A stretch of DNA of 64,000 nucleotides from an uncultured archaeon (GCA_964549685.1 CAZJVE010000001.1:116098-180097), one strand, 5' to 3'; shown: positions 6,167-58,138, counted from the stretch's first letter. Notes: a model not told the origin generated them from the sequence alone. Program-made: numbers and translations.

Positions 6167-7370
6167 TTTTATCCAGTAGCAGATTCATGAATTCCGTTCC
6201 GTTTCTGAGGCCATAGGAGCCCTTCTCAGCGGATTTTTCAGTAAAGCTCTCTACCGAATCCCCTTCCCTGGCCGTTGAATAGATTGCAAAGGGAACAGGG
6301 TCGGGGGTATGAGTCTTTACACTCAGGGGAGTTGCATGGTCGGGGAGAATCCCGATTGTGAATTCCTTGCCCTTCATGCCATCGAGAATTCTCGCAAGGA
6401 CTCTGATGTCGATGTTCTCAATCGCCTCTATCTTGTTGTCCAGCAAACCCTCATGGCCGGCTTCGTCGGGGGCTTCGATATGGATGCATACGAAGTCGTT
6501 CCTCTCCAGTGCCTCCATGGCATAGTCTGCCTTGCCCTCGTAGTTTGTGTCGAGGTATGCGGTCGCTCCGGGAACCTCAATGACCTCCATTCCGAGGGTT
6601 GCTGCAATTCCCTTCAGGAGGTCAACCCCAGATATCAGGGCGCCCTTGAGGTTGAACATTTCATTGAAGGAGGGGACCTTCTTGTTCCTGCCCGCACCCC
6701 AGGGCCATATCAGGTTGGCAGGCAGTTTGCCGCCTCCCTCTCTCTTTTTGTTTATGGGATGATTCTGGAGAATTTCCCTGGATTTTTCAATTAGGCCATC
6801 TAGAATCCTTGCTGTGTCTTCTCCCTCGGCGGTCTTTGCCTTTGGAAGATTCTCACTAACAGAACAGTCATGGATGTCGTGGGGGGGTTTGCAGATTATC
6901 TCCTCAGAGTATTTCCCGGAGAGAACGATAATGTGCCTGTAGCCTCTGCCAGGGTAGAATTTTATGTCTGTAGTGCCTAACTCTTTGTCCAGCTCTTCTA
7001 TCAGAACACTCGCTTCCTCGTCACTTATGTGTCCGGCGCTGTAGTCCTTAATCATACCGTCAGTCTCATTAATCAGATTGAGCCTTATCGCTATCTCGCT
7101 GTTCTTCAGTTTGATTCCAAGGCTTCTGGCTTCCAGGGGGCCTCTTCCGCCGGGATAATAAACCTTTGGGTCATAGCCAAGGACTGCGAGGTTTGCAACG
7201 TCGCTCCCGGCTTCGAATCCTTCGGGTATTGTCTTCAGGAGGCCGCAGCGCCCGTTCTTTGCGATAAAATCCATTGCCTTGGTTTCTGCCTTCTCCAGAG
7301 GGGTTTTTCCTCCGAGCTGTTCCAGGGGATAGTCAGACATGCCATCCCCGACTACAATCATATATTTCAT
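6159..7370 (-). CDS. apgM: Cofactor-independent phosphoglycerate mutase (archaeal type)
   Basis: GDGMSD, GKTPLE, GSDVANL, APDEAGH, PDHATP...HTPDPVP. Confidence 0.93.
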   Translation of the reverse strand: MKYMIVVGDGMSDYPLEQLGGKTPLEKAETKAMDFIAKNGRCGLLKTIPEGFEAGSDVANLAVLGYDPKVYYPGGRGPLEARSLGIKLKNSEIAIRLNLINETDGMIKDYSAGHISDEEASVLIEELDKELGTTDIKFYPGRGYRHIIVLSGKYSEEIICKPPHDIHDCSVSENLPKAKTAEGEDTARILDGLIEKSREILQNHPINKKREGGGKLPANLIWPWGAGRNKKVPSFNEMFNLKGALISGVDLLKGIAATLGMEVIEVPGATAYLDTNYEGKADYAMEALERNDFVCIHIEAPDEAGHEGLLDNKIEAIENIDIRVLARILDGMKGKEFTIGILPDHATPLSVKTHTPDPVPFAIYSTAREGDSVESFTEKSAEKGSYGLRNGTEFMNLLLDKNG

Positions 7371-36122: not shown

Positions 36123-36505
36123 TTCAGGTTCTCAACAAGAGCAGGGGTTTTGTTATAAGCGAATCCTGTGGTGTAGCTGATTCTTTCTTCTCCAGGTTCA
36201 GGGGGCTGATGCTTTCAAAGCCAAGGGACCTGGTTCTTGTTTCTCCGAGGGAGGACATAAAGTCCTCGGCGATTCACATGCTGTTTATGAGGTTTCCCAT
36301 AGATGCTGTGTGGGTAGATTCAAAAATGATTGTTGTTGATATTAAAAAAAATATTAAACCTAATTCCCTAGGGATTTTCAGGCCGGGGAAGCCGGCTAAG
36401 TTTGTTGTGGAGCTGGGGGTGGGGAAGTTAGGCACTACAGAAGTTGGTGACATAATTGAGTTCTCACATCCCGGCCCCGCCGAGCCGCTTCATCAGCCGC
36501 TTTAG
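36116..36505 (+). CDS. DUF192-family protein
   Basis: ADSFFSRFRGLM...IHMLFMRFPID...VVEL. Confidence 0.88.
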   Translation: MVIQVLNKSRGFVISESCGVADSFFSRFRGLMLSKPRDLVLVSPREDIKSSAIHMLFMRFPIDAVWVDSKMIVVDIKKNIKPNSLGIFRPGKPAKFVVELGVGKLGTTEVGDIIEFSHPGPAEPLHQPL

Positions 36506-42492: not shown

Positions 42493-42673
42493 GCATATTT
42501 ATTGATTGAATTCCAAGGAATATGAGAATTGTTTCAGATTCACTCGTCAAGAATATAACGCGTTCACGCTCATAGTTGTTTGCCTTAATGAGAAGGATAC
42601 CGGGGGTTAGCACTATTTCTTGGCTGTGATGCCTGAATAATTCCAAACACGTTTAAATTTTGAGGTGATTGAT

Positions 42674-43816: not shown

Positions 43817-43875
43817 TCCCTCTTCTTTTTTTCTATTTTTATCCGTCTGAATCTAACTTAATAGTGGGTTCAAAC

Positions 43876-45339
43876 ATGCGCCTTGAGAGCATAGATAGCA
43901 CCAGAGACGTTGAAATTGTAAGAGACCCAATGGCCAGGATTGTTGGGCAGAGTGGTGCTATAGAACGAGTCAAGGTCGCCATAAAACAGAGAAGACACCT
44001 GCTTCTTGTTGGTCCCCCCGGAATCGGGAAGTCTATGATTGCTCAGGCGATTGCCCTTTCCCTTCCAAAGCCAGAAGAGGAGATTCGTATTCTTCATAAC
44101 CCAGAGAATCTGGAGAGGCCAGTTCTCAAGGTTGTATCTGGAGGGGAGGCCAGGGAGGAAGAAGCGCCACCGTCTGCTGATGAGCGGACCGTTAGCCCGC
44201 AGTCTGTTCCGTCCTTTGTTGCGGAGCGCCTTGGCTTCCGATGCTTTGTTTGTGGAGCAATAAGCGGCGCACGGGAGCGGACGTGTCCCTCCTGCGGAGC
44301 AAACAAATATAAGAAATTCGCATGGAACCAGCAGAGCTCGCCCCTTGGGGAGATAATAACTGAGGTCTTTGAGATTGAGGGGGAGGGTCCCGAACTGGAG
44401 GTGAAAACAGTAACTGCCGGGCCCTCTGGAAAGGAACGCGTTGTGGTCTACCGCAGGACAGATGAGGGGAGGATTATGGTTCTGCAGGGGGGGGAGTTAG
44501 AGGGGCCGGCTCAAGAAAATGCTCCCCCGGCAACGAAGGTTCTGGTTCCACTTGGTAGGGCCCCGTTCGTTCGTGCTACTGGCGCCTCAGAGACCGAGCT
44601 TTTGGGCGATGTAAGGCACGATCCGTATGGTGGCCACCCAGAGATTGGGGCCCCCGCGTATCAAAGGGTTGTTCCTGGTGCGATACATGAGGCTCATGAG
44701 GGCGTTCTCTTCATAGACGAGCTGCCTTCCATGGAGCATTTGCAGGGCTTCATCCTGACCGCGATGCAGGAAAAGAAATTTCCAATTATTGGCAGAAATC
44801 CGCACTCCTCCGGGGCTTCGGTAAAGGTCGAGGCCGTGCCCTGCGACTTTGTTTTTGTGGGCGCGTGTAACACGCGGGAGCTTGCCGGGATGCTTCCTGC
44901 CCTGCGCTCCAGAATTGTTGGTTCGGGTTATGAAATATTGCTGGAGACTACGATGCCTGATTGTGAGGAGAACAAAATGGCTTTGGTCAGGTTTATTGCA
45001 CAGGAGATTGAATTGGACGGCAGAATCCCCCACGCCAGTAGGGGGGCCGTTGAGGAGATAATAAAGGTTGCCAGAAAGCGGGCATTAGAGATAGATGGTG
45101 TGAGAAACGCCCTCTCCCTTCGCCTTAGAGAGCTCGGGGGCCTGATACGGCTTGCGGGGGACATTGCCGTGTCTGAGGGCACGGAATTTATAGAAGGAAA
45201 GCACGTTAAGGAGGGCATCACGGAAACAAAGCCCATAGAACACCAGTTAAGGGAAAAATACGGCTCTGTTTGGAAGGGGCTGGAGCGCGATAGTTATATT
45301 GATTCTACCCAGGACCCCCGGCTTGAGGGTTATGGGTGA
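43876..45339 (+). CDS. Lon-related AAA+ ATPase lacking the protease domain
   Basis: GPPGIGKS, LLGDVRHDP, GAIHEAHEGVLFIDE, LRLRELGGL; CxxC...CxxC insert; no Lon Ser-Lys domain. Confidence 0.82.
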   Translation: MRLESIDSTRDVEIVRDPMARIVGQSGAIERVKVAIKQRRHLLLVGPPGIGKSMIAQAIALSLPKPEEEIRILHNPENLERPVLKVVSGGEAREEEAPPSADERTVSPQSVPSFVAERLGFRCFVCGAISGARERTCPSCGANKYKKFAWNQQSSPLGEIITEVFEIEGEGPELEVKTVTAGPSGKERVVVYRRTDEGRIMVLQGGELEGPAQENAPPATKVLVPLGRAPFVRATGASETELLGDVRHDPYGGHPEIGAPAYQRVVPGAIHEAHEGVLFIDELPSMEHLQGFILTAMQEKKFPIIGRNPHSSGASVKVEAVPCDFVFVGACNTRELAGMLPALRSRIVGSGYEILLETTMPDCEENKMALVRFIAQEIELDGRIPHASRGAVEEIIKVARKRALEIDGVRNALSLRLRELGGLIRLAGDIAVSEGTEFIEGKHVKEGITETKPIEHQLREKYGSVWKGLERDSYIDSTQDPRLEGYG

Positions 45340-45384: not shown

Positions 45385-45489
45385 AGTTAGGCACTACGTT
45401 CTGATTTCGGGGGCCCGAGTTAGGCACTACACTAAGGCATCAAAACTTAGGCACTACAAAACCAAAAGTAGAATAAGTTAGGCACTACA
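45385..45489 (+). repeat. Cluster of four AGTTAGGCACTAC(A) repeats
   Basis: Copies start at 45385, 45418, 45445, 45476; unrelated spacers. Confidence 0.92.
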
Positions 45490-45557
45490 TAAAAATAGAA
45501 TTGGTTGGGTGTCCTCTCAGATCAACGAATATTTAGACGCTGCGCGTTTCGGCTTAA

Positions 45558-45869
45558 CTATTCCTCGGCCGCTGCTTCCTCAGCACCGGCCACTACCAAT
45601 TTACCGAATTTCCCTGTGCTTACTTGGATTTCGCCGCGATACTCTTTCGCCCATCCATTCTCTATAACTATCTTGTCGTTTGCCTTTACTTGGTCCGCCT
45701 GTTCGTTCCAGAGGGTTAGGTTTATCTCGCCGGTTTCGTCCTTCGCCTTGGCGTTTGCCACTCGACCGGTGCCTCTAAAATTGGTAAACTCCCGTGGTTC
45801 CTCAACCTCAACTACCTCCACCTCAAGCACGTCAACGGGCTTGTTTGGCTGAACATCCTTTATCTGCAT
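45558..45869 (-). CDS. ssb: Single OB-fold single-stranded DNA-binding protein
   Basis: DETGEINLTLWNEQ...IENGW.KEYRG; acidic tail; GAGGT RBS. Confidence 0.88.
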   Translation of the reverse strand: MQIKDVQPNKPVDVLEVEVVEVEEPREFTNFRGTGRVANAKAKDETGEINLTLWNEQADQVKANDKIVIENGWAKEYRGEIQVSTGKFGKLVVAGAEEAAAEE

Positions 45870-45937
45870 TTTATATACCTCATGAAATAATAGATTTATG
45901 ATTTAGATGAGGAACTATATAAATGAGCCATTGGTTA

Positions 45938-46714
45938 CTATACTCCTATTTTAATCCTATTATTAATCTCTTTTAGAATAGCGATAGTAGATAGTGCTGC
46001 GAGATAGCTTGTTTTTGGGTTGTTAGGAGAGGGTAGGTTTTCCATCCTGACTTTGAATTCCCCAAACTCTCCTTTAACACGAATTTCATGAATGTTCCTC
46101 TCCACACCCGGGTCCGCTATTATTCTTAGTTTCGTTTTATCAAACCCTATGCCTGCCAAAGAGAGGGTGGCAGCAACATTAACGTTTTTTGGGAATTTTT
46201 TGATTCCCTCTCTTGCAGAACCATCATAGAGCACGGTTTCTTTGTCGGTTGTAGTGCCTAACTCTGCCGGGGGCTTCCGCGTTGTCAATTCAACCGAGTC
46301 GATTCCCTTGGCTTTGGCTGCCTTTATCCCATCCAAACCAGCAACCGCCCCGGAGGGAAGATAGACCGTGCTTTTGTTTTTATTGCTGCTCTCCACCAGC
46401 CCGTTAAACACCGTTTCATCAGCAAGGGCACCGACACTCATTATAATCAAGCCCCGGCCGGAATTCAGAACCCCCACCCCATATTCCTTCACCGCGTCCT
46501 GCGACGCCGCCTCAACTATCAAATCAGTGCCCTGGAGCAGGCCCTCGAAGGAGCCTGCAACGCTTGGTTTCCTACTCAACGACTCTGCTAATCCTCTGGC
46601 TCGCTCGGCGTCCTGGTCAAAGACGGCAACCAGGCTGCAATTAACCTCTCCGTTATCAATTGCCTCGGCCAGAATTCTGCCGATGTTCCCGCAACCAAGG
46701 AGGCCGATTCTCAT
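45938..46714 (-). CDS. nadX: L-aspartate dehydrogenase
   Basis: GCGNIG, VEAASQ, MSVGAL, PSGAVAGLD, FPKNVNVAA, NPKTS. Confidence 0.93.
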   Translation of the reverse strand: MRIGLLGCGNIGRILAEAIDNGEVNCSLVAVFDQDAERARGLAESLSRKPSVAGSFEGLLQGTDLIVEAASQDAVKEYGVGVLNSGRGLIIMSVGALADETVFNGLVESSNKNKSTVYLPSGAVAGLDGIKAAKAKGIDSVELTTRKPPAELGTTTDKETVLYDGSAREGIKKFPKNVNVAATLSLAGIGFDKTKLRIIADPGVERNIHEIRVKGEFGEFKVRMENLPSPNNPKTSYLAALSTIAILKEINNRIKIGV

Positions 46715-46731
46715 CTTCTTCCCTTCCCTAC

Positions 46732-47547
46732 TTATCTCCTTATCCATAACTGCACCCTGATTAGAATATACAAGAGGAAAAAGATAAAAGAGAGCACCAG
46801 GACGCGTAGTTTTGACACCGGCCGCGCCTGAGTCAAACCACCGGCATCAAAAAACTTCCCCCGTTCAATATCCTCGACATACTTGAGAATTCCCCTCTTA
46901 TGTCCTGCACCAACAATGGCCAGGATTTTCTTATCCGGGTTATTTGCCTGGAGCTGGTGGAGCGACAGGGCCATGTACCTGTCTCTTTCATCAACCAGAG
47001 CACCGTAAAGGCGGGGCAGCCGGCGTCTGACAACACCCATAACCTTTTCAATATTCTCCTCCTCAAGGATGCTGCTCAAATCGTTCCCGAACAGGTCCCC
47101 AAAGACCAACGCCTCCTCCTTACCGAGACGCGCCATCCTTAGAATCTCCCTGAACGGAATATTGACAAGCCTGCTGACGGTAACCTCAATATCCCTGTCA
47201 ATCAGCGCTGTTCCTGCACCGATTTCATTGGAGAACTGAATAGCAGCGAACATATCTGAGCCCGGCGGAAGCCCATACCTCTTTCCAATATCCTGCTGAA
47301 TCAAAGCGAGAATTCCACCCAGGAATACAAGAAACGACCCCCCTCTCACCACATCGGCTATTATGCTGCCCGCGCTTTTCTGTGCCCCGCCCTGGTAGAA
47401 ACCAGCACCTTGCGATTCTATTACCCGGAATCTCTTTTCACACAGCTCAAGAGCAACGATGTCCGGTCTCTCATCAAAGACGGCCTCCCTGACGCCCTCA
47501 ACACTCCTCTCCAGAATGTGCCCCGTCCCGACGATTTTTATATTCAT
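46732..47547 (-). CDS. TraB/PrgY (TIKI-like) family protein
   Basis: GTGHI, PD.VALELC..R, PGSDM, IDR, LVDERD, VGAGH. Confidence 0.87.
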   Translation of the reverse strand: MNIKIVGTGHILERSVEGVREAVFDERPDIVALELCEKRFRVIESQGAGFYQGGAQKSAGSIIADVVRGGSFLVFLGGILALIQQDIGKRYGLPPGSDMFAAIQFSNEIGAGTALIDRDIEVTVSRLVNIPFREILRMARLGKEEALVFGDLFGNDLSSILEEENIEKVMGVVRRRLPRLYGALVDERDRYMALSLHQLQANNPDKKILAIVGAGHKRGILKYVEDIERGKFFDAGGLTQARPVSKLRVLVLSFIFFLLYILIRVQLWIRR

Positions 47548-47611
47548 CCTTACATAATTAAATACACGAAATTTAAATGGTTGGACAAAATCAACTAATT
47601 GGAGGGATAAA

Positions 47612-47905
47612 ATGAGCAGGAGACTATCACAATTCTATGGGATGGACATATATACGGAACAGGCAGAGTACGTGGGTAAGGTGGAGGACGTTATTCTAAA
47701 TCTGGACAAGGGCGAGATTATGCGTCTCACGCTCCGGTCATTCAAGACCAGAAGGATACCAAGCGAGGACGTGAGGAAGATTCTCCAGGAAGAGAGCATT
47801 GGATACCCCGATATAGAGCGGGTCGCTGACATAATAATATGCAAAAAAGACCCCCGGAAGTCAAAGAAGCGGGAGAAGATTCCAACCCTAGAGGCGGCAG
47901 AATAA
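47612..47905 (+). CDS. PRC-barrel protein (CdpB-like)
   Basis: LS..YG.DIYT....YVGKVEDVIL...V.DIII. Confidence 0.85.
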   Translation: MSRRLSQFYGMDIYTEQAEYVGKVEDVILNLDKGEIMRLTLRSFKTRRIPSEDVRKILQEESIGYPDIERVADIIICKKDPRKSKKREKIPTLEAAE

Positions 47906-47920
47906 TCCCGCCAAATCAGG

Positions 47921-48469
47921 ATGGATATGATTCAATTGAGAGAAAACCTTCTAGAGCTGATTAAAACAGAGGCACTCTCTAATCAACCAGTCAAACTTTC
48001 TTCTGGGAAAGAGAGCAGCTACTATATCGACTGTCGGCTCGTTACTTTGAACCCGGCGGGCTCGCTGGCGATTGCCGAGATTCTCTTCGATATGTTAGCC
48101 GACGACGAGATTGATGCATTCGGTGGTCCGACGCTTGGAGCTGACCCCATATGTGGTTCTCTGGCAGCACTAAGCCAGCAGAAAGGAAAACCACTCCCAT
48201 CATTCATTATACGGAAAGAGCCCAAGGCCCACGGCAAGGGCAAATGGATTGAGGGCCCGCTGAAAACCGACTCTAGAGTCGCAATCTTCGATGACGTTGC
48301 AACAAGCGGCGGCTCCCTACTGAAGGCCATAAAGGCAGTAGAAGAGATGGGCTGCAAGGTGGCGAGAGTCATTGTTCTGGTGGACCGGGGGGAGGGGGCG
48401 AAAGAGAAGCTGGCCGAAGAAGGCCACAGCCTTGAGGCAATATTCACAAAAGAAGACCTCGGGGTCTGA
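47921..48469 (+). CDS. pyrE: Orotate phosphoribosyltransferase
   Basis: LSSG..S.YYID, RKE.K.HG, DDVATSGGS. Confidence 0.95.
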   Translation: MDMIQLRENLLELIKTEALSNQPVKLSSGKESSYYIDCRLVTLNPAGSLAIAEILFDMLADDEIDAFGGPTLGADPICGSLAALSQQKGKPLPSFIIRKEPKAHGKGKWIEGPLKTDSRVAIFDDVATSGGSLLKAIKAVEEMGCKVARVIVLVDRGEGAKEKLAEEGHSLEAIFTKEDLGV

Positions 48470-48471
48470 AA

Positions 48472-49311
48472 ATGAACCATGCTGCTCTGAAGAAACGACT
48501 TCGGGAGATGGTCCACGAGGACGCTGGGGCCGGGGACATAACAACGGCGCTCGTTCCAAACAAGAAAGCCAGGGCAGAGATTGTGGCGAAGGAGCCATGC
48601 ATCGTTGCAGGAACCAAAGAACTGAATTCATTATTTTCTTTATTTAATATAAAAATTACGAAGTCTACCAAAGACGGAGCAAGGGTGAGAAAGGGCCAGC
48701 GAATTCTTTCTCTTTCTGGGAATTCCCACGACATTCTTGTTGTTGAGAGAACGGCGCTCAATATTCTATCAAGAATGAGCGGAATTGCCTCATTGACAGC
48801 AGAGGTTCTGAAAGAGGCAAGGAAGGGCAGCCCCAAAATAAGGATTGCGGCAACAAGAAAGACAACCCCCCTCTTCGGATATTTCGAGAAGAAGGCAATA
48901 AAGGCCGCCGGGGGAGAAACACACCGCATGGGTCTGTGGGACATGGTTCTTATCAAGGACAACCACCTTGGGTTCTTTGGGGGCATAACTGAGGCAGTAC
49001 GGGCAGCAAAGCGAGGCAGGCCCCGCAACGACAGGATTGAGATTGAGGCCTCAAACCCGAAAGAGGCGTTGGAAGCGGCAAAGGCCGGGGCGGACATAAT
49101 TATGCTCGACAACTTCACGCCGAGGGCGATAGGGAAAACGATATCGCTGCTGAAGGAGAATAAACTAAGGAAGGGAACCGTCCTTGAGGCCTCCGGCGGC
49201 ATAACGAAGAAAAGCATCAGGGCTTACGCAAAGACAGGCGTTGATGTAATCTCGCTCGGGATGCTCACGCACTCGGCAAAGGCGAAGGACTTCTCGCTGA
49301 GAATAATATAA
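48472..49311 (+). CDS. nadC: Quinolinate phosphoribosyltransferase
   Basis: GDITT, TRKTTP, HRMGL..LIKDNH, DIIMLDN, EASGG. Confidence 0.96.
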   Translation: MNHAALKKRLREMVHEDAGAGDITTALVPNKKARAEIVAKEPCIVAGTKELNSLFSLFNIKITKSTKDGARVRKGQRILSLSGNSHDILVVERTALNILSRMSGIASLTAEVLKEARKGSPKIRIAATRKTTPLFGYFEKKAIKAAGGETHRMGLWDMVLIKDNHLGFFGGITEAVRAAKRGRPRNDRIEIEASNPKEALEAAKAGADIIMLDNFTPRAIGKTISLLKENKLRKGTVLEASGGITKKSIRAYAKTGVDVISLGMLTHSAKAKDFSLRII

Positions 49312-49312
49312 A

Positions 49313-49621
49313 ATGTTCCGTCTTGTGTACATAACCTGCGGCGGCAATGAGGAAGCGGAAAGGATTTCCGACGCTCTCGTTAAGGAGAAGCTTGCAGCAT
49401 GCGTGAATTTCTTCCCAATAAACTCCGTATTTGAATGGGAAGGGGAAATAAAACAGGAAAAGGAGTTCGCCATGCTCTGCAAAACGACGCAGGACAAAAT
49501 CCCCCAACTAAAGAAAAGGGTGAAGGAGATTCACAGCTATGAGATTCCCGCAATCCTCATTATAGAAATAAAAGAGGGAAACGAGGAATTCCTTAGGTGG
49601 GTTGATAAGTGCCTGGAATAG
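49313..49621 (+). CDS. cutA: Divalent-cation tolerance protein CutA
   Basis: KLAACVN...S...WEG...HSYE.P. Confidence 0.94.
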   Translation: MFRLVYITCGGNEEAERISDALVKEKLAACVNFFPINSVFEWEGEIKQEKEFAMLCKTTQDKIPQLKKRVKEIHSYEIPAILIIEIKEGNEEFLRWVDKCLE

Positions 49622-49623
49622 TT

Positions 49624-49715
49624 TGTAGTGCCTAACTCTGCAGTGGTGTGGTGCTTAACCTTTGGTGCTGTTTTGTAGTGCCTAACTTTATTATGCCGTG
49701 TTGTAGTGCCTAACT
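49624..49715 (-). repeat. Inverted cluster of four AGTTAGGCACTACA repeats (one degenerate)
   Basis: TGTAGTGCCTAACT at 49624, 49674, 49702; TGTGGTGCTTAACC at 49647. Confidence 0.92.
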
Positions 49716-49736
49716 TTCTAGAACCGCAACACACAA

Positions 49737-50315
49737 CTACTCTCTGAGAACCTTCCCGGACCGCAAATCAATAACCTTCGACGGCTTCCCCACCCTGCAC
49801 GGCCCGGAGTCGATAACGAGATCTGCTCCATCCTTTATCCTATCAGAAATCTCCTCGACGCTGGTGGGGGGCGCCTCACCAGAGGCATTCGCTGAGGTGG
49901 TTATTATTGGAACCCCCGCGGCATCGACGACTCTCCTCAATGCTGCGTGGTTGGGAATCCTCACCCCAACCGTGTCCTTACCAGCAGTAACGGCATCGGG
50001 AATTCTAGATTTTTTCTTTAAAATGAACGTGTATGGTTTACCAATATTATCAAGTATGAATTTTCTCTCCCCCACACCGACAACTGCGTACTCCTCAACC
50101 ATCTCGATGCTGGAGAAGGCAACGGACAGCGGCATGTCTCTACTCCTCTTCTTAATCTCAAAAACCCTCTCTACGCCGGGGGATTCTATGGAGCAACCGA
50201 GTCCATAGACGGTATCTGTCGGATATACAATAAGCTTACCCGCCCTCAAAAACTCCGCAGCGCATAGAATCTTATCCTCTTCAGGGTTATCTGGAGAAAT
50301 TCTTAGAATCTTCAT
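49737..50315 (-). CDS. tsaC: Threonylcarbamoyl-AMP synthase (TsaC/Sua5 YrdC domain)
   Basis: PTDTVYGL, K.R....P, VGVRIP, TSANASG. Confidence 0.93.
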   Translation of the reverse strand: MKILRISPDNPEEDKILCAAEFLRAGKLIVYPTDTVYGLGCSIESPGVERVFEIKKRSRDMPLSVAFSSIEMVEEYAVVGVGERKFILDNIGKPYTFILKKKSRIPDAVTAGKDTVGVRIPNHAALRRVVDAAGVPIITTSANASGEAPPTSVEEISDRIKDGADLVIDSGPCRVGKPSKVIDLRSGKVLRE

Positions 50316-50338
50316 GTTGACTGTGGCAGACCAAGGGT

Positions 50339-50497
50339 CTACGGTCCTTTAAAGCCGCACTTTTCACACACATACGGTGTACCAAGCCCTCTGCATGACT
50401 TGCACCGTATCATCTCGGTCTCGCCGCACTGGGGGCACTTAAATTCAACAAACTTCTGCCTTACCTCTGTTCCGCAACTGCTACATAATTTGACCAT
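50339..50497 (-). CDS. Small zinc-finger protein (DUF1610/HVO_2753-like)
   Basis: CSSC...F.CPQCG...RC..CR....Y.CEKCGFKGP. Confidence 0.88.
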   Translation of the reverse strand: MVKLCSSCGTEVRQKFVEFKCPQCGETEMIRCKSCRGLGTPYVCEKCGFKGP

Positions 50498-50545
50498 CGT
50501 TTTGTGGATATTTGTATTCGATTGAATATTAATATAATATAGAGA

Positions 50546-51820
50546 ATGCGAAAACCCATCCCAAAACCAGGAACCCCGGTAGAGATAAAAACCAAGGAGA
50601 AGACATACGAGGGGATTCTTATGGAGCGGCCCGCCTTGGCCAAGGACAAGTTCGTGGTAATAAAGCTGGAGAGCGGCTACAATGTCGGCATAAAGGAGAA
50701 GAAAATCGATAGCATCAAACCCATCAAGAAGAAGATAAAAAAGGACGCCTTCAAACCCGCCAGGCACAGAAGGGACCCGAAAAAACCCGACATATCAATC
50801 CTTGCAACCGGCGGAACAATAGCCAGCAGGGTTGACTATCTTACTGGGGGTGTACATTCAGCCTTTTCAGCAGAGGAACTAATCTCTGCTGTGCCTGAGC
50901 TGGAGGAGATTGCAAACCTCTCCGGAAGGCAGCTCTTCAACAAGTTCTCGGAGAACATGCAGCCAGAGGACTGGGTTAAAACCGCAAAGGAGACCGCAAA
51001 GGAGATAAAGAAGAAATCCGCTGGAGTGGTCATCACCCACGGAACAGACACGATGCACTATACCTCAGCAGCATTAGCTTTCATGCTGAAAACCCCGGTT
51101 CCTGTCGTCATCACTGGTGCACAGAGGAGCTCCGACAGGGGCTCAAGCGACGCTGCCTTTAATCTGATAAATTCTGCAAGGGTCGCAGCCAACGGAGAAT
51201 TCGCAGAGGTGTGCGTTGTCATGCATGCAGAACCCTCAGATTCACACTGCCTAATCCATCCCGCAACAAAGGCAAGAAAGCTGCACTCCAGCAGGAGGGA
51301 TGCATTCAGGAGTGTGAATTCACAGCCCCTTGGAAGGATTTCAGAAGAAGGAATAGAATTCTTCCAGGAGATGAATAAAGGAAATAAACTGGAACTGGAC
51401 ACGAAACTGGAGGAGAAGGTGTCCTTACTAAAATACCACCCAGGAATGGATTCTAAAATAATTGATAATTTAATAAAGGAAAATTACAAGGGAATTCTCA
51501 TTGAGGGCACTGGCCTTGGCCACACCAGTGAGGCCCTTTTCGATTCGATAGAGAACGCAATAAACTCTGGAGTTGCTGTTGCAATGACATCCCAGACGAT
51601 ATTCGGCACCGTAAACATGAACGTCTACTCCACCGGCAGGAAGCTCCTCGACATGGGAGTAATTGCGTGTGGGGACATGCTCAGCGAAACAGCCTACGTA
51701 AAGCTGATGTTCGTCCTAGGGCATACAAAGAAACAGGACAAGGCTAGGGAGATGATGCTAGCGAATTACGCGAGGGAGCTCACAGAGGGATGTGGGGTCG
51801 ACCCCCCGGACCTATACTAA
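50546..51820 (+). CDS. gatD: Glutamyl-tRNA(Gln) amidotransferase subunit D
   Basis: KLESGYNVG, TGGTIASRVDY.TG, HGTDT, QRSSDR. Confidence 0.96.
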   Translation: MRKPIPKPGTPVEIKTKEKTYEGILMERPALAKDKFVVIKLESGYNVGIKEKKIDSIKPIKKKIKKDAFKPARHRRDPKKPDISILATGGTIASRVDYLTGGVHSAFSAEELISAVPELEEIANLSGRQLFNKFSENMQPEDWVKTAKETAKEIKKKSAGVVITHGTDTMHYTSAALAFMLKTPVPVVITGAQRSSDRGSSDAAFNLINSARVAANGEFAEVCVVMHAEPSDSHCLIHPATKARKLHSSRRDAFRSVNSQPLGRISEEGIEFFQEMNKGNKLELDTKLEEKVSLLKYHPGMDSKIIDNLIKENYKGILIEGTGLGHTSEALFDSIENAINSGVAVAMTSQTIFGTVNMNVYSTGRKLLDMGVIACGDMLSETAYVKLMFVLGHTKKQDKAREMMLANYARELTEGCGVDPPDLY

Positions 51821-52024
51821 CTCTTTTATCACGACATCGCACGCTGCAAGAATCGTTAGACCGATAATTGCCGAGATCAGAAAACGCAGACCCGGGTCAT
51901 TTGGAAATAAATAGACGTCCAGCAGGCCCCAGATTCCGTGCCAGAACATAATCACTGCAACACCGATTATAAGGGCAAATAGCTTTTGATGATTTACCTC
52001 TAACTTTTTAAACGCCTTTAGCAT
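51812..52024 (-). CDS. Small two-TM membrane protein
   Basis: FW.GIWGLLD.YLFP motif; hydrophobic. Confidence 0.7.
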   Translation of the reverse strand: MLKAFKKLEVNHQKLFALIIGVAVIMFWHGIWGLLDVYLFPNDPGLRFLISAIIGLTILAACDVVIKELV

Positions 52025-52051
52025 ATTTATCTATTACTCTTTTATTAAAAA

Positions 52052-53284
52052 ATGTTTATCGGTTTGGATGATACGGACTCCCTGAAGGGGGGATGCACCA
52101 CTTACCTAGCAGCGCTGCTGTGTAGGGAGCTAGGCACTACAACACGCCCCCGACTCATCCGGCTCAACCCGAACATCCCCTACAAGACAAGAGGCAACGG
52201 CGCAGTCGCAATTGAGGTGGATGGAAACCCTGCTAGAATAAAGGAAACGGCCCTGAAACTGGTCAAGAAACGCGCCCACACCCAGGACAAGAGAACAAAC
52301 CCCGGTGTGGCATTCATTGATAATCTAAATTCAAAAAATAAAGACATTTTAAATGAATTCTACCAGAGAGCGGTCTCAGAACTCGTAACGATAGAGGAAG
52401 CCGATGAAACCGCAGCAAGGGCTGTGGCCGAAACCCACAAATTCAACAACGGCAGGGGCATCATCGGCGCACTGGCAGCAATCGGTGCAGAACTTGATGA
52501 CAGGACCTATGAGCTAATTGCCTACAGGACGAAGGAGAACTGCGGCAAGCCGAAGAAGATAGACGAGGATTCCGTATTCTTGATGCATGAACAATTCCAC
52601 CCCAAGGTATTCAACTCCATTGACCCAGAGACGAATCAAATCCTTATAACCCCACACGGCTACGACCCGGTCTTCTGTGGCATCCGGGGAGAATCTCCCG
52701 GCGCAGTTTTGAAAGCATGGAAGGCCATAAAACCCCTGGAAGAGATAGAACTCACCCAAATATTTGAGACAAACCAAGCTACAGATGCTCATTTGAGAAA
52801 TAGAAAAATCTCTGAATTAAAGCCCCATGACTGCGCAATTCTGGAAGGCGCCGTTGCCAAAGACCCAAGAACAATCGAGGGCGGCCACGTGCTCTTCTCA
52901 ATTGCTGACAGCACGGCAGAGATTGATTGCGCGGCCTACGAGCCAACAGGAGGATTCAGAGAAATAGCAAGGAAACTGCTGCCCGGGGACAGGATTCGTG
53001 CCTACGGCGGGATTGGAAAATATATTAATACTCTAAACCTTGAGAAAATTGAAATTTTAGAATTGGTTAAGGCCTACAAGAAGGAATCTCCTGCCTGTTG
53101 CGGCCGGAGGATGACCTCAGCAGGAAAAGACAAGGGCTTCAAGTGCAGGAAGTGCGGCAAGAGAAAGGACTCGAACTCTGCAGCAACCCAGGAAATTCCC
53201 CGGGGACTTAAAGAAGGATTCTACGAGGCACCACCCAGGGCGATGAGGCACCTGAGCAAGCCGATAATAAGGGCGCAGCAGTGA
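52052..53284 (+). CDS. tiaS: tRNA(Ile2) agmatinylcytidine synthetase
   Basis: GLDDTDS..GGCTTY, RLNPNIPYKTRGNG, TNQATD.H, RHLSKP. Confidence 0.95.
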   Translation: MFIGLDDTDSLKGGCTTYLAALLCRELGTTTRPRLIRLNPNIPYKTRGNGAVAIEVDGNPARIKETALKLVKKRAHTQDKRTNPGVAFIDNLNSKNKDILNEFYQRAVSELVTIEEADETAARAVAETHKFNNGRGIIGALAAIGAELDDRTYELIAYRTKENCGKPKKIDEDSVFLMHEQFHPKVFNSIDPETNQILITPHGYDPVFCGIRGESPGAVLKAWKAIKPLEEIELTQIFETNQATDAHLRNRKISELKPHDCAILEGAVAKDPRTIEGGHVLFSIADSTAEIDCAAYEPTGGFREIARKLLPGDRIRAYGGIGKYINTLNLEKIEILELVKAYKKESPACCGRRMTSAGKDKGFKCRKCGKRKDSNSAATQEIPRGLKEGFYEAPPRAMRHLSKPIIRAQQ

Positions 53285-53371
53285 ATTTCAACAGACAAAA
53301 CCGATATGTAGTGCCTAACTTTTCTCCAACCTATTTAATCCTCCACTCCTAATTCTATTACACTCCCAGAG

Positions 53372-55513
53372 ATGGAAAACAACTACAAATCCAAGGTCAA
53401 GGTAAGGACGTCCAAGACAACTTTTGAGAGATTTGACAGCGAAAAGATAACGAAATCCCTGGTGCGGGAGACCGGCCTTGACGAGAAGAAATCAAGAGAG
53501 GTAGCGGAGGCAGTCGAGGCGGAACTTCAGGGACTTAAGCTCGAATACGTCACTGCTCCATTAATCAGAGAGATAGCAAACGTAAAGCTGCTTGAGCACG
53601 GCCTTGAGGACGTAAGGGCCAAATATACCCGTCTCGGAATGCCAGTCTATGACGTAAAAAACCTGATAGAGCTCCCCTCAAAGGAGAACGCAAACCTGCA
53701 ATATAATCCTGAATCCATTCATAAGCTTCTTGCAGACCAGGTCTCTAAGGAATATACTCTGATAAACGTGCTTCCTCTGGAGCTGGCAGACGCTCACATG
53801 GCGGGCGAAATCCATATTCACGACCTGGACTACTTCATAAGGCCCTTCTGTTTCAGCCATGATATAAGATTCTTCCTAAAGAACGGCTTCAAGGCCGATG
53901 GGATTGGCAACCACACAGCAATTGCGGGGCCCGCAAAGCGCCCCGAGGTAGCCTTCCTCCATGCAGCAAAGGTCCTTGCAGCATCGCAGACAAACTGTGC
54001 GGGAGGACAGGGCTTCAGCTTTTTCAATACATTTCTTGCGCCCTTCATAGCAGGCCTTGACTACAAGAAGATAAAACAGCTGGCCCAGATGTTCATCTAC
54101 GAGCTGTCGCAGATGTACGTTGCAAGGGGCGGCCAGGTTGTTTTCAGCTCAATAGACTGCGACATGTCGGTTCCAAAGCAGTTCAGGGACATCCCCGCAA
54201 TCCTGCCCGGCGGGGACGTCAAGGAATCTGTAACATACGCGGACTTTGAGGACGAAACAAGAAGTTTATTTAATGCAATCCTTGATGTCTATCTCGAGGG
54301 GGACTGCATAGGAAAGCCCTTTAATTTCCCCAAATTCGAGGTACAGGTTCACCCTAAGGATCTAAAAAACGGCAAGAACGATGAAGAATTGATGAGGGTA
54401 TCGGAGCTGGCTGCAAAATTCGGAACCCCATATTACATAATAAACCAGCCATACATGCCGGAATTTGCTTGCTACCAATGTTGTTCGTTCCTTATGCCGT
54501 TAGACGAATCATCAACAGATGATGACGTAAGGGACGGAACCATAAGGGGTGGCGGTCTGCAGGTTATAACAACAAACCTGCCGCAGATTGCTTATGAAGC
54601 AAATGGCAACGACGACAAATTCTTCGAGCTCCTTCAAGACAGGATGGAGAAGGCAAAGAAGACGCTCCTGCTGAAAAGGCAGACCATAACGAGAAACCTT
54701 AACAACAACCTGCTTCCATTCATGGGCCAGCCGGTAAACGACAAGGAGAGATACCTTGAGGTTGACAAGCAAAGCTACATAATCGGGCTAGTTGGCATGA
54801 ACGAAGCCGTAAAGGCACACACAGGGGAGGAGCTACACGAGTCGGATAACGCATGGAAATTCGGTCTTAAGGTAATGAAGGCGATGAAGGACACGGTAGC
54901 ACAGTTCAGAGACGAAACGAAGCTCAACTTCACTCTTGCTAGAACCCCTGCAGAATCATCTGCTTACAGGCTCGCTCAGATAGACCTTAAGAAATACGGC
55001 GACAAGGCAGTAGTGAACGGCGAAAATGATTCGGCCTACTACACCAACTCATTCCACACAAGGCCCTCGGCAGAAATTCCCCTATGGAAGAAGCTCACAG
55101 TAGAAGGGGCCTTCCATCCCCTAACAGACGGGGGGGCGCTGAGTCACGTATATCTTTCGGAAAAGAACCCGAGCCCCGAGGGCATATATGAACTGACAAA
55201 GAAGATTGCAACAAAGACAGCCATACAGTATTTCGCCTTTACTAAGGACCTCTCAGTATGCAGCAAATGCAACTTCACCTCCGGCGGGCTTGTTAATGAG
55301 TGCCCGAACTGCAACTCCAAGAACATTGACTGGTGGTCCAGAATCACGGGATACTATCAGAACGTTGCAGGCTGGAACAAAGGCAAACTGGCAGAGCTTA
55401 GCGAAAGGAGAAGGTACGGTCTTTCCGACGACTCAGGGGAACTCTCATTAAACGTAAAGAAGAAACTCAGCAAGGAAGGCAAAGCCAACTGGAATGGGAA
55501 CTTTGACTTTTAA
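53372..55513 (+). CDS. nrdD: Anaerobic (class III) ribonucleoside-triphosphate reductase with ATP cone
   Basis: IHIHDLD, YQCC finger loop, TPAES, YYTNS, CxxC...CxxC, glycyl-radical loop RITGY. Confidence 0.95.
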   Translation: MENNYKSKVKVRTSKTTFERFDSEKITKSLVRETGLDEKKSREVAEAVEAELQGLKLEYVTAPLIREIANVKLLEHGLEDVRAKYTRLGMPVYDVKNLIELPSKENANLQYNPESIHKLLADQVSKEYTLINVLPLELADAHMAGEIHIHDLDYFIRPFCFSHDIRFFLKNGFKADGIGNHTAIAGPAKRPEVAFLHAAKVLAASQTNCAGGQGFSFFNTFLAPFIAGLDYKKIKQLAQMFIYELSQMYVARGGQVVFSSIDCDMSVPKQFRDIPAILPGGDVKESVTYADFEDETRSLFNAILDVYLEGDCIGKPFNFPKFEVQVHPKDLKNGKNDEELMRVSELAAKFGTPYYIINQPYMPEFACYQCCSFLMPLDESSTDDDVRDGTIRGGGLQVITTNLPQIAYEANGNDDKFFELLQDRMEKAKKTLLLKRQTITRNLNNNLLPFMGQPVNDKERYLEVDKQSYIIGLVGMNEAVKAHTGEELHESDNAWKFGLKVMKAMKDTVAQFRDETKLNFTLARTPAESSAYRLAQIDLKKYGDKAVVNGENDSAYYTNSFHTRPSAEIPLWKKLTVEGAFHPLTDGGALSHVYLSEKNPSPEGIYELTKKIATKTAIQYFAFTKDLSVCSKCNFTSGGLVNECPNCNSKNIDWWSRITGYYQNVAGWNKGKLAELSERRRYGLSDDSGELSLNVKKKLSKEGKANWNGNFDF

Positions 55514-55514
55514 A

Positions 55515-55763
55515 ATGGCCAGGCTAAAACTCTTCACAGCGACCAAATGCCCCAAATGCCCAGAGGCAAAGAGGGTCGTTGAGGAAGTAGCAAAGGATTT
55601 AAACCTAGAGTATGAAATTGTTAACATAGACGAGGGAGATAACCTCATCAACGCATTGCAATATCAGATTGCCTCCACCCCCTCAATAGTGATAGATGAG
55701 CAGGCGGAATTCATAGGAGCTGTTCCAACCAAGGAGGAACTGGTACAAAAACTAAACAAATAG
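55515..55763 (+). CDS. Thioredoxin/glutaredoxin-like protein (NrdH-like)
   Basis: CPKC, STP; starts 1 nt after the nrdD stop. Confidence 0.87.
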   Translation: MARLKLFTATKCPKCPEAKRVVEEVAKDLNLEYEIVNIDEGDNLINALQYQIASTPSIVIDEQAEFIGAVPTKEELVQKLNK

Positions 55764-55767
55764 CAGA

Positions 55768-56730
55768 ATGTATCATATAGCTGCTTACTCCCAGAACGAT
55801 TCTGAAATCCACAAAGCAACGGACATATCGGAGGTCAAGAAATTTCTCGGCAAACACCCAGTTACATGGCTTCATATTTCTCATCCAAAGGGAAAAGACA
55901 TCAAGGCTCTTGCTGAGATATTTGGCTTTCACCACCTTCCACTAGAGGACAGCATAAAATTCAAGCAGAGGCCGAAATTTGAAGACTACGAGGAGCACTT
56001 CTTCCTGACAATAAACATAATCGAATACTCCAAGGCGGTTGAGGCCCACCAGCTTGCGATGTTTGTTGGCGATGATTATGTCGTTACAATATGCGAAAAG
56101 GAAAACAACTGCATAGACGAGGCCCTGAAAAGGATAGAGGCAAAGAACCCGAGAATTCTTGCCAACAAGACCGGATTCCTCTGTTACCTCATTCTCGATA
56201 CGGTAATAAACAACTATTTCCCGCCGCTTGACGCGGTTGAGGAGGAGATAGAGAACATTGAGAAAGAGATAGTGAGGAAGGCCTCCAAGAAAACCCTCCA
56301 GAAAATCTTCCGGTTAAGGAAGAGCCTCCTGCTCCTGAGAAAGGCAATCTGGCCCGCCAGGGAAATGATATATGAATTACAAATGGCGGACATGCCGAAG
56401 TCCGAGAGAAAAACGACGGTCTATTACAGGGACCTATACGACCACATAACGAGAGTGATAGACATGGTGGAAACATACAGGGAGCTGTTAACCGGGTCTC
56501 TTGACACATACCTGTCGACAATCTCAAACAACATGAACGAGGTCATGAAGGTCCTCACGATAGTAGCATCATTAATAATGATACCGACCCTTATCTCAGG
56601 CATATACGGCATGAATTTCAGGTACATGCCGGAACTACAATGGACCTACGGCTACCCATTCGCGCTGTCTCTGATGGCATTCACAATGCTCGCAATGCTC
56701 CTCTACTTCAGGCGCAAGGACTGGATATAA
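55768..56730 (+). CDS. corA: Magnesium transporter CorA
   Basis: QRPK, MK.LT...GIYGMNF..MPEL.W.YGY. Confidence 0.95.
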   Translation: MYHIAAYSQNDSEIHKATDISEVKKFLGKHPVTWLHISHPKGKDIKALAEIFGFHHLPLEDSIKFKQRPKFEDYEEHFFLTINIIEYSKAVEAHQLAMFVGDDYVVTICEKENNCIDEALKRIEAKNPRILANKTGFLCYLILDTVINNYFPPLDAVEEEIENIEKEIVRKASKKTLQKIFRLRKSLLLLRKAIWPAREMIYELQMADMPKSERKTTVYYRDLYDHITRVIDMVETYRELLTGSLDTYLSTISNNMNEVMKVLTIVASLIMIPTLISGIYGMNFRYMPELQWTYGYPFALSLMAFTMLAMLLYFRRKDWI

Positions 56731-56786
56731 CACTTTTCCTGCACCCTTTGCTCCTCTAGTAATATACTGACTTCTAATTTCCTATA

Positions 56787-58049
56787 ATGCAAAACCCTAA
56801 GCGCAAGCAAGGCTGCCAGATAACGAAGGCTATAAAGAGAACCTACCCCAGAAACAAAGAGACATGTCTGCTTTGCAAGGGAGGAAGGCTGCTCTGCGGC
56901 ATGCCGTCCTGCCCACTTCTCAGAAAGATAAACATCCAAAGGCCGATAAAGGAAAGGCTCTCAAAGGACATGTCAGGGCCATCCCCATCCATATTCGTGG
57001 GCTGGAATGGCTACCCGGACGTATTTGTTGGACCGATGACTTCACTTGACCCAGAGAAGGCGCACCTTCTCGACGACCCATCGAAGTGGTACGGCCTTGG
57101 CTTCGACGACATCATAGGGATGCGCTCCGTCCTGGTGAGGTCAAAGAAGCGGGAGGGAATTCACACAAGAAACAGATTCATCGAGAATTCTCAGGAAATC
57201 GCCCTGGCAGTAAAACCCACCGAAATCGAAACAGAGTTCAAGAAAACGCCCTCCTACTCAATCTCCTTCTCGTCCCTGAGCCAGCCAATGGGCCCCTCCG
57301 GCGTTCTGGAAAGGCTCCGGGTAACGGAAAACCCGAAAATCCCGAGAAAGGTAGACTCCATAGTCTCCGACGAGCTAAAGGCCGCTGATATGGCCACCCG
57401 GCTCTATGACAAGGACTTCGACGTCTACTATCTCACGAAAGCACTGGCATCGGGGGCCCTGGGCCTCAACGATAACAAAAAAATGGTTCCCACTCGCTGG
57501 TCCATTACTGCTGTTGATGACATGATATCCAAGGACCAGATGGAGAGGGTCCGGGAATACCCATCAATAAACGAATTCCGGGTTTATAGCAACGAATACC
57601 TCCATAACCACTTTGAGGTCCTCCTCATGCCCGGCCCCTGGGAGTTCGAGCAGTTCGAGGCATGGGCCCCAAAGACCCTCTGGACCCAGCACAGCAAGGA
57701 ACCCATAATCCAGGAGGAACACGAGCTCTTCAAGGGCCGCACATCATATGCCATGAAGGAGGCCGGCGGTTACTATGCAGGAAGAATAGGAGTAACCGGG
57801 GCCCTCGACCGCATGAAAAGACAGGCTCGCGCAATAATCTTCAGGGAAATCTCCGAGGACTATATAATCCCAGTTGGAGTGTGGGAGGTAAGAGAGAACG
57901 TAAGAAAAGCAATGGAGAAGAAACCAGGAAAATTTACTACCCTTAAAGAAGCACTACAGGACGTAAATTCCAGACTTGCTATTCCAATCCGTGAATATAT
58001 GAAAAGAAGTGAAATTCTCAAACAGAGAAGACTGAATGAGTGGGTTTGA
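56787..58049 (+). CDS. nreA: Nre-family DNA repair protein
   Basis: CxxC...CG...CP, PTRWSITAVD, C-terminal PIP box QRRLNEWV. Confidence 0.92.
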   Translation: MQNPKRKQGCQITKAIKRTYPRNKETCLLCKGGRLLCGMPSCPLLRKINIQRPIKERLSKDMSGPSPSIFVGWNGYPDVFVGPMTSLDPEKAHLLDDPSKWYGLGFDDIIGMRSVLVRSKKREGIHTRNRFIENSQEIALAVKPTEIETEFKKTPSYSISFSSLSQPMGPSGVLERLRVTENPKIPRKVDSIVSDELKAADMATRLYDKDFDVYYLTKALASGALGLNDNKKMVPTRWSITAVDDMISKDQMERVREYPSINEFRVYSNEYLHNHFEVLLMPGPWEFEQFEAWAPKTLWTQHSKEPIIQEEHELFKGRTSYAMKEAGGYYAGRIGVTGALDRMKRQARAIIFREISEDYIIPVGVWEVRENVRKAMEKKPGKFTTLKEALQDVNSRLAIPIREYMKRSEILKQRRLNEWV

Positions 58050-58138
58050 TAGTGTAGTGCCTAACTCAAACTGTCAATTGTTAGCAACACTTCGCAAGAA
58101 CTGTAAATTATTAGTAACGGTTTTCAAGCAACCGAAAT

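Follow-up and report, generated by a model that had tools for sequence, protein, structure and literature searches.

We analyzed a 64,000-nucleotide stretch of DNA from an uncultured archaeon (GCA_964549685.1). This stretch, the window, is C1:116098-180097 of a 1.166-Mb assembly (G000; 27 contigs, 85% complete), and it carries repeated copies of an asymmetric 14-mer, AGTTAGGCACTACA. The core of the word is GTTAGGCACTAC, with a purine-rich 5' side; A or G occupies positions -1 and -2 at 83-84%, which is the sole conserved feature of the flanks. There are 13 copies with at most two mismatches in the window, compared with 0.18 expected, and 0 of 100 shuffles reached 13. An earlier note on this DNA had listed these 13 copies and one more with three mismatches, and all of them were found. 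The copies mark a real, strongly selected and undescribed chromosome site, which is most like a Ter-type polar barrier and falls into no known family. Two clusters of copies face each other in a region that we call the hub. The copies and the genes that frame the hub are given here by window position and strand.

42665-43816 (+): Toprim (DnaG-like) gene, left flank of the hub
43864-45339 (+): LonB-like AAA+ ATPase gene (491 amino acids (aa), without protease domain), left flank of the hub
45385..45489 (+): cluster 1, four direct copies at 45385 (1 mismatch), 45418, 45445 (1 mismatch) and 45476
45558..49621: inner zone between the clusters, with genes for an ssb-like OB protein (-), nadX (-), a TraB-family protein (-), a PRC-barrel protein (+), a phosphoribosyltransferase (+), nadC (+) and cutA (+)
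46250..46263 (-): single exact copy inside nadX (aspartate dehydrogenase), sense, read as xAG TTA GGC ACT ACA (E-L-G-T-T)
47612..47905 (+): gene of the PRC-barrel protein, 97 aa with a basic tail, inner zone
49624..49715 (-): cluster 2, exact copies at 49624, 49674 and 49702 plus a three-mismatch copy at 49647-49660 (-)
52128..52141 (+): one-mismatch copy AGCTAGGCACTACA inside tiaS, sense, breaking the convergent pattern of the hub
53307..53320 (-): exact copy between tiaS (+) and nrdD (+), antisense to both, fitting the convergent hub pattern
58053..58066 (-): exact copy flanked by two convergent genes, nre (+) and an unnamed one of 308 aa (-)
36426..36439 (+): exact copy, sense and in phase with a DUF192 open reading frame (ORF; 36116-36505), close to the 3' end of that frame
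6969..6982 (-): exact copy far from the hub and opposed to its orientation, sense within an ORF of 405 aa

Cluster 1, with periods of 33, 27 and 31 bp, begins 45 nt past the stop of the AAA-ATPase gene (+) and lies between that gene and the convergent ssb (-). Cluster 2 lies between the convergent cutA (+) and Sua5/YrdC gene (-), 2 nt past the stop of the former and 21 nt past the stop of the latter, and its orientation is sense to the Sua5/YrdC gene. Both clusters thus sit between convergent genes, one of them next to ssb, as had been noticed before; the copies at 46250 (-), 52128 (+) and probably 36426 (+), however, are intragenic and in the sense frame. The copy at 46250 (-) is the innermost minus-strand copy of the hub. 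The copy at 58053 lies 3 nt past the nre stop and 72 nt past the stop of the 308-aa gene on the minus strand. The copy at 36426 is 300 nt past a ParA/MinD-like gene (35361-36122), which is named only by its 33% identity to an annotated ParA/MinD-type gene of a relative (G032). The tandem copies gave no resolvable helical phasing; Rayleigh P was ~0.02-0.03 whichever repeat between 9 and 11.5 bp was assumed (n=49).

In the whole assembly, 17 of the 27 contigs carry copies: 27 exact ones, 13 with one mismatch and 6 with two. The density is about one per 29-43 kb, and the two-mismatch count is close to chance level by our own arithmetic. The concentration of 12 of 14 copies at 45-58 kb therefore describes the window but not the genome. 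The regional excess is still real: 13 of 40 sites (6 of 29 loci) fall within 12.7 kb, compared with 0.32 loci expected (Poisson P ~1e-6).

We then compared this distribution with that in other genomes of the order. The exact 14-mer is present in all 18 other genomes of the same family (10 genera), in the one genome of family f4 and in three of six genomes of f7; it was not found in the five genomes of families f2, f3, f5 and f6. The reversed word, used as a control, gave a single match in the 31 genomes together. A search of genome contigs with a two-copy pattern resulted in 24 loci, one of them cyanobacterial and the others with the titles Altiarchaeota, Micrarchaeota, Iainarchaeum, 'Methanosarcinales' and plain 'archaeon'; the same pattern had 0 matches in viral contigs. 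Exact copies make up 137 of the 187 distinct sites; the other 50 have a single mismatch, which is at position 1 or 14 in 35 of them. The copies are sharply bounded, with unrelated spacers between them and unrelated remaining flanks, and the hub intergenic DNA of seven genomes shares no 10-mers other than those of the motif itself. The exactness of the word, its age and the lack of a conserved flank show that it is a recognition site under selection and not a decaying repeat. This agrees with the earlier view of a selected polar recognition site rather than the end of a repeat element. Judged from these sequence patterns, the motif is probably the asymmetric recognition site of a putative sequence-specific DNA-binding protein, common to Altiarchaeota and related small archaea.

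Variants of the word occur as well. In G020, whose family is without the canonical word, AGTCAGACACTACA is present five times on several contigs, which hints that the site and its reader have co-evolved. The variant AGTCAAGCACTACA occurs twice in G023, in which a variant repeat at the syntenic place was not convincing, and in G027 the syntenic place holds a facing pair of copies with two mismatches each. The cyanobacterial match (L033:6242-6291) consists of two exact copies 36 bp apart in non-coding DNA of a 6.5-kb high-coverage Leptolyngbyaceae contig. The pair is located ~145 nt upstream of a truncated ORF with two CxxC pairs, and the contig also has Uma2-family and FtsK-like genes; its ORFs had no relative in G000 or at the archaeal motif loci.

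The distribution within these genomes is not even. In every genome examined 25-80% of the copies lie in one hub of ~10 kb. The order is + ... + | - ... - in nine genomes (G000, G004, G010, G015, G021, G026, G030, G032 and G033), independent of the direction in which the contig is written, with the window copy at 52128 and G021:94244 as exceptions. In relatives the hub lies in a largely syntenic block, namely dnaG, AAA+, [ssb, serB], nadX, PRC-barrel, nadC, cutA, Sua5, zinc-finger, gatD and tiaS; the hub of G032 is the exception and is not syntenic. The content of the innermost +|- interval varies: ssb and part of nadX in G000, ssb-serB in family members, deoxyhypusine synthase in G021 and 8.4 kb including ribonucleotide reductase in G030. 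The Toprim/AAA+ pair adjoins the hub in G010, G021, G026, G030 and G033 and is 75-90 kb away in G032; in G023 only AAA, ssb and nadX remain together. A PRC-barrel homologue is located within 2 kb of a motif copy in 10 of the 11 genomes examined, which carry three phylum labels. In family members (L001-L008) the ssb and serB unit is flanked by facing copies, and the copy next to ssb is 10-27 nt upstream of a TATA-like box of this gene. The ssb of the window (45558-45869) is inverted relative to these family members, and no serB of the ssb-serB type was found in the G000 assembly, where the best match has 29% identity (on C14). Contigs of two public DNA runs, possibly the source, show the hub in identical assembly, and a third run from one of these two studies contains cluster 1 as well; four public runs contained no alternative joints at the hub.

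The facing clusters coincide with a switch in strand composition. The GC3 skew (G minus C at third codon positions, plus strand) is positive over 160 kb of C1 regardless of gene orientation and then changes sign. The extremes of the cumulative GC3 skew in seven hub contigs are as follows.

G000:C1 (180 kb): maximum at window 45507, 18 nt after cluster 1
G021:C1 (159 kb, a clean inverted V): maximum at 89,724, between + at 89,395 and - at 90,470
G010:C3: maximum at 27,168, on a one-mismatch + copy
G030:C3: maximum at 504,736, 0.75 kb from a + pair
G033:C1: minimum at 98,153, 0.8 kb beyond the - array
G032:C17: minimum at 120,440, at the outer - cluster, 6.4 kb from the innermost +|- interval
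G026:C1: no extreme at the hub, only a weak left-right sign change in the same sense as in the contigs with a maximum

The extreme is thus at or near the +|- boundary in six of the seven contigs (four maxima, two minima), and in five it is inside the innermost +|- interval or no more than 0.9 kb from it. The fraction of the contig that is as close or closer amounts to 0.004, 0.007, 0.023, 0.043 and 0.090 in these five contigs and to 0.114 in G032, for hubs that are related by descent; these fractions have to be doubled, because maximum or minimum was chosen per contig after seeing the curves. The coincidence of hub and skew switch on this fine scale is hard to put down to chance. The proposed overlay on cumulative skew thus placed the facing clusters on a replication-type switch in strand composition, in G000 as well as in relatives. 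In G000 and G021 the AT skew at third positions (AT3) flips opposite to GC3, so that the strand leading to the hub has a surplus of G and T. In bacteria an excess of G and T is the signature of the leading strand, and this pattern, like the four maxima, speaks for a terminus. A comparison of gene strands on either side of the hubs gave only a weak and inconsistent bias. Strong GC3 skew (0.1-0.3) occurs in only part of G000 (C1 up to 160 kb, C2 up to 76 kb, C4, C9 and C11), and the other long contigs have almost none. A second switch in C2 of G000, near 76-83 kb, is in coding DNA and has no motif.

The polarity of the hub does not extend over the chromosome. The change of strand near 46 kb is valid within the hub, but elsewhere the orientation of the copies follows the neighboring genes. 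On the left arms of the seven hub contigs six distal sites share the hub orientation and seven do not. A chromosome-wide polarity of the FtsK orienting polar sequence (KOPS), Chi or Ter-like type was therefore rejected, since outside the hub the orientation is independent of the GC3 skew; the genome-wide strand polarity that the earlier note had envisaged was not upheld.

Outside the hub, copies prefer the 3' ends of genes, convergent ones above all, and are co-oriented with the genes. This was shown with 184 distinct sites, pooled after leaving out L009 (which duplicates G021), the cyanobacterial L033 and sites within 40 nt of a sequence end. By context, the loci are convergent (32), divergent (10), tandem-sense (26), tandem-antisense (8), coding-sense (34), coding-antisense (12) or at a sequence edge (8). 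Because G000 has nearly as many convergent as divergent intergenic regions (205 and 206, next to 697 tandem ones), the 32 versus 10 loci mean that convergent regions are enriched ~3-fold per region (P ~9e-4). The sense bias in tandem intergenic regions, 26:8, has a P of ~0.003. The end of a same-strand gene is located just 5' of 101 of the 137 non-coding sites; 27 of these 101 start within 25 nt of the stop or overlap it, and the motif's own TAG is the stop codon of nine genes. These data fit the suggestion that the site is a roadblock terminator between convergent genes.

A single model of a polar barrier covers all three patterns, i.e. the sense copies, the copies between convergent genes and the facing clusters. 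A protein bound asymmetrically to the site would let polymerases and helicases pass from the AGTT side and would stop them from the TACA side. Sense copies in and behind genes would then be tolerated, while copies between convergent genes would end opposing transcription. The two facing clusters would act as a trap, which forks may enter but cannot leave, and in this way they would fix the replication terminus. We tentatively favor, at somewhat less than an even chance, that the 14-mer is the polar site of a putative DNA-binding protein that forms a fork trap at the terminus together with a roadblock to transcription. It is possible, with slightly less confidence, that this is the first sequence-defined archaeal replication terminus, with a box shared across Altiarchaeota, Micrarchaeota and Iainarchaeota, a fork trap of a few kb and a genome-wide roadblock between convergent genes, both formed by one complex of the box with a putative protein unrelated to the known ones. 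The PRC-barrel gene, which is constant in the hub, could tie the end of replication to division if the terminus reading is true; a role of this protein family in archaeal cell division is reported, in the portion of the literature available.

Several observations weigh against a fork trap. The weak points of the model are scattered copies that face normal forks, two genomes with a mirror signature and a missing protein. Of the copies of G000 outside the hub, at loci with a local GC3 skew, seven are with the skew and seven against it, including two tandem pairs against; a strict fork barrier should not tolerate copies opposed to replication. In G032 and G033 the hub coincides with a minimum of the skew, and the signature is the mirror image (C,A | G,T). 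Such a signature reads as an origin by the usual rule. The GC3 and AT3 skews are discordant in G030 and in G026, the latter without a usable extreme, and the closed genome G023 has no genome-wide usable skew. The support for the switch itself is good, but that for its sign is not. In G023, a circle of 1.39 Mb, AAA-ssb-nadX is 678 kb from orc1, and the PRC-barrel side is only 6.7 kb from it. A crude k-mer scan of G000 detected no other intergenic short-repeat cluster, so that no alternative origin was located. With respect to transcription, the sense excess in coding DNA (35 sense versus 12 antisense copies) does not differ significantly from the 2:1 ratio to be expected of open frames (P 0.16, or 0.07 when only ORFs of at least 150 aa are counted), the gene calls come from our own crude ORF picker, and many of the counted sites are orthologous and hence not independent.

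The search for the reader protein adds to these points. In G000, at 85% completeness, there were 0 matches to Tus (Pfam Ter, PF05472; the E. coli control was found), 0 to RTP (PF02334) and 0 to ParB_N. Every hub neighbor profiled is universal in the order, and the search by neighborhood and phyletic pattern gave no binder. Four candidates were rejected on this basis: the LonB-like AAA+ protein is present in 31 of 31 genomes, including those without the exact motif, and the PRC-barrel protein (30 of 31), DUF192 (30 of 31) and the HVO_2753-like zinc-finger protein (29 of 31) each occur in some genomes without it. Three unnamed ~300-aa proteins adjacent to the hub (in G000, G030 and G008) have no mutual similarity.

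The opposite assignment, which we consider unlikely, is that the hub is an origin. The 14-mer would then be an initiator box, read by Orc1/Cdc6 or by a second initiator captured from an extrachromosomal element, and the helicase would be loaded between the facing clusters as at origin recognition boxes (ORBs). The motif resembles archaeal ORB and mini-ORB elements as an asymmetric box of ~13-14 bp that is conserved across phyla and forms inverted clusters at a replication landmark, and the scattered extra copies without orientation are reminiscent of DnaA boxes. The skew minima of G032 and G033, the neighbors dnaG, ssb, nrdD and nre, the iteron-like tandem pair on the small cyanobacterial contig and the vicinity of the PRC-barrel side to orc1 in G023 are also in favor of an origin. 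The same is true for the k-mer scan, because the hub clusters are the only intergenic short-repeat clusters in G000 and none is near orc1. On the other hand, in 10 of 10 genomes the hub contig does not carry the main orc1/cdc6 gene, the one with a Cdc6 C-terminal domain; weaker paralogues exist, one of them on the hub contig of G032 at 82 kb from the hub. An alignment of the winged helix and wing of Orc1 (19 sequences; one more was dropped for an internal stop) contains no residue that separates the 12 genomes with the exact motif from the seven without. Because this DNA-reading region is nearly the same with and without the exact motif, Orc1 is unlikely as the reader, and the idea of initiator boxes read by Orc1/Cdc6 lost ground. 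The hub is a skew maximum in four contigs, whereas orc1 of G010 is 8 kb from a V-shaped skew minimum. No AT-rich unwinding element was seen between the inverted boxes by reading, with no composition scan run; the inner zone is coding, with a length of 0.8-8.4 kb and varying gene content across genomes, and in the window (45558..49621) it consists of ordinary genes, with no AT-rich non-coding stretch and no mobile-element gene. It would also be odd for an essential site to be missing in its exact form from several families of the same order, and initiator boxes would not be expected to favor convergent gene ends so strongly. Together, these results make a terminus roughly twice as likely as an origin.

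Three other explanations have to be weighed against the polar barrier. The site could organize segregation or the terminus region like parS/ParB or matS/MatP, i.e. condense or position the region, possibly tied to division, and block neither forks nor transcription; we regard this as rather improbable. As in parS and matS, there is a high-information site in a regional hub with outliers, with intragenic copies and identity across wide taxa, and outside the hub its orientation is irrelevant to replication. The recurrent PRC-barrel gene fits as well, as does a ParA/MinD-type ATPase gene in G032 (L017:564-1499; C17, ~120.6-121.5 kb), which ends 12 nt before the outer three-copy cluster at the skew minimum, and the tandem pair on the plasmid-like cyanobacterial contig could be a centromere. 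However, the strict convergent order of the hub and the tandem sense bias play no role in such a model, the 14-mer is not palindromic, ParB_N is lacking among the G000 matches, and genomes that lack the exact motif have PRC-barrel and ParA-like genes as well. An element for transcription only is equally doubtful. The word would be a protein roadblock or an RNA 3'-end signal (AGUUAGGCACUACA) that ends or stabilizes mRNAs, with the hub as a by-product of convergent, highly regulated genes. The positions behind same-strand gene ends, the stops within the motif, the enrichment in convergent regions and the tandem sense bias are what it predicts; yet it leaves unexplained why 25-80% of the copies are at one syntenic spot with a skew switch (6 contigs), and why copies occur upstream of the ssb TATA box in relatives or antisense as at 53307, and an Rfam search of the window gave only one tRNA at gathering score. 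A remnant or target of a mobile element (a transposon end, att core, integron-like core site or uptake sequence) is very improbable. It could account for the inverted pairs 1.5-1.6 kb apart that flank ssb-serB in relatives, the inversion of ssb in G000, an in-frame 24-nt unit with a second copy in one gene and the occurrence of the motif across domains; its letters GTTAGGC also fit the integron core, which we take to be GTTRRRY. But the unrelated flanks mean that there is no element body, housekeeping genes instead of a transposase or integrase are found between the pairs, viral contigs had no match and the four public runs no alternative joint, the sites are orthologous across families, and the density is far below that of uptake sequences.

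Among known systems, the polar barrier is closest to Tus-Ter of Escherichia coli and RTP-Ter of Bacillus subtilis, which also have an asymmetric site, two opposed groups around a skew switch and copies in or beside genes. By analogy, the polar arrest of forks and RNA polymerase in these systems may be the action of the hub box too. Groups of opposed sites, as around a Ter-type terminus, are present in the convergent hubs of nine genomes, provided that the hub is the terminus; the Ter feature that all sites are permissive on their own replichore is absent in G000, as the even split with the skew indicates. The hub further differs from Tus-Ter and RTP-Ter in its unrelated sequence, in the absence of a Tus or RTP match in G000, in the distance of only 0.8-8 kb between the opposed groups and their arrangement in tandem arrays, and in the scattered copies, which are not replichore-oriented. 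The eukaryotic Myb-type terminator and fork-barrier sites (TTF-I Sal boxes, Reb1, Rtf1) are tandem asymmetric boxes of ~14-18 bp downstream of genes, which act on transcription and forks; the resemblance to them is functional only.

The earlier judgment that the motif is unlike ORB, dif, parS and clustered regularly interspaced short palindromic repeats (CRISPR) stands, as no match to the ORB context, dif, parS/ParB or CRISPR anatomy appeared in the comparisons made. Apart from the absence of orc1/cdc6 next to it, of co-variation in the Orc1 reading domain and of a visible unwinding element, and apart from its non-palindromic form and strictly oriented hub, which set it off from ORB and from parS or matS respectively, it shares with dif/XerA the position at a presumed terminus. 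The dif site, in contrast, is a single 28-bp site with two inverted 11-bp arms, while the 14-mer is multi-copy without inverted arms. The Thermococcales dif consensus, as given in the available part of PMC4640148, had no match in the window, and matches in the genome were only at control level. CRISPR repeats are 23-50 bp with spacers of similar size; here the unit is 14 bp with gaps of 8-34 bp and 2-4 copies, and a true array in G010 looks different. Unlike repetitive extragenic palindromic (REP) elements, miniature inverted-repeat transposable elements (MITEs) or insertion sequence (IS) ends, there is no conserved sequence or hairpin beyond the core, and the pairs enclose housekeeping genes.

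In the literature searched (supplements aside) there was no match to the 14-mer, its complement or either 12-mer core. No description of an archaeal fork trap and no paper joining 'origin recognition box' with DPANN was found there either, while two papers mention Altiarchaeota together with GC skew. A 2023 review (PMC10331603), in the sections accessible, treats fork traps as bacterial and plasmid systems and notes that Ter sites are also present on plasmids. Forks in Sulfolobus collide stochastically, according to the portion available of PMC3020120, and the accessible text of PMC4640148 states that no sequence or biological data define the point where archaeal forks meet. How and where archaeal replication ends is an open question. 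In uncultured archaea from several phyla, the word locates a replication landmark to within ~1 kb. The word can be used as bait for its reader, as an anchor for replication profiles from metagenomes and to orient contigs. Even as an origin or a centromere, the site would be an undescribed one at the chromosome level, in a large and poorly known part of the archaeal tree.

Further observations concern orc1 and possible origins. The syntenic halves of G023 lie apart, one of them antipodal to orc1, and its skew is not usable, and this genome was abandoned as proof that the hub is opposite orc1. Alternative origin sites in G000 were discarded; the DNA of C2 near 80 kb is coding, and so are the clustered repeats at C3:91 kb, C12:1 and C8:4.5 kb. 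A 2-kb gap beside orc1 in G010, also considered as an origin, turned out to be a CRISPR array (L084:2500-4560; C1, ~202.5-204.6 kb) with ~30 repeats of 30 nt and a period of 67-73, located 3 kb from orc1/cdc6. The orc1/cdc6 gene is 0.6-13 kb from a contig end in 7 of 10 genomes (G021, G026, G031, G032, G033, G034 and G035), and its neighborhood seems hard to assemble.

The 491-aa AAA+ protein on the left flank of the hub has 47% identity to the ATPase part of ~650-aa LonB proteins, and its gene often follows right after dnaG in the genomes of the order. The 142-aa ORF at window 50339-50767 has probably been called too long; in relatives, conservation is limited to its last ~50-60 residues, which form an HVO_2753-like zinc-finger microprotein. 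Adjacency of tRNA genes to the motif, which was seen in two other genomes, does not hold in G000. Two public runs (X1 and X3) include contigs of another organism whose only match to the window is the motif, with three copies within 1.2 kb in X1 and two in X3; co-resident relatives therefore carry the motif too. In G033 (L023:1322-1383; C1:97.3 kb) three exact copies with identical 10-nt spacers (24-bp period) run into a 100-N gap that is flanked by motif halves, where a longer tandem array has probably collapsed in the assembly. Finally, one gene (~400-430 aa), found at L019:2304-2341 and at C13:19318 of G000, has the motif in frame at an equivalent position in both; in L019 a second copy is supplied by a 24-nt unit that is also in frame (…KLGTTSTGELGTTPE…), which suggests that motif-plus-spacer units can duplicate within genes.

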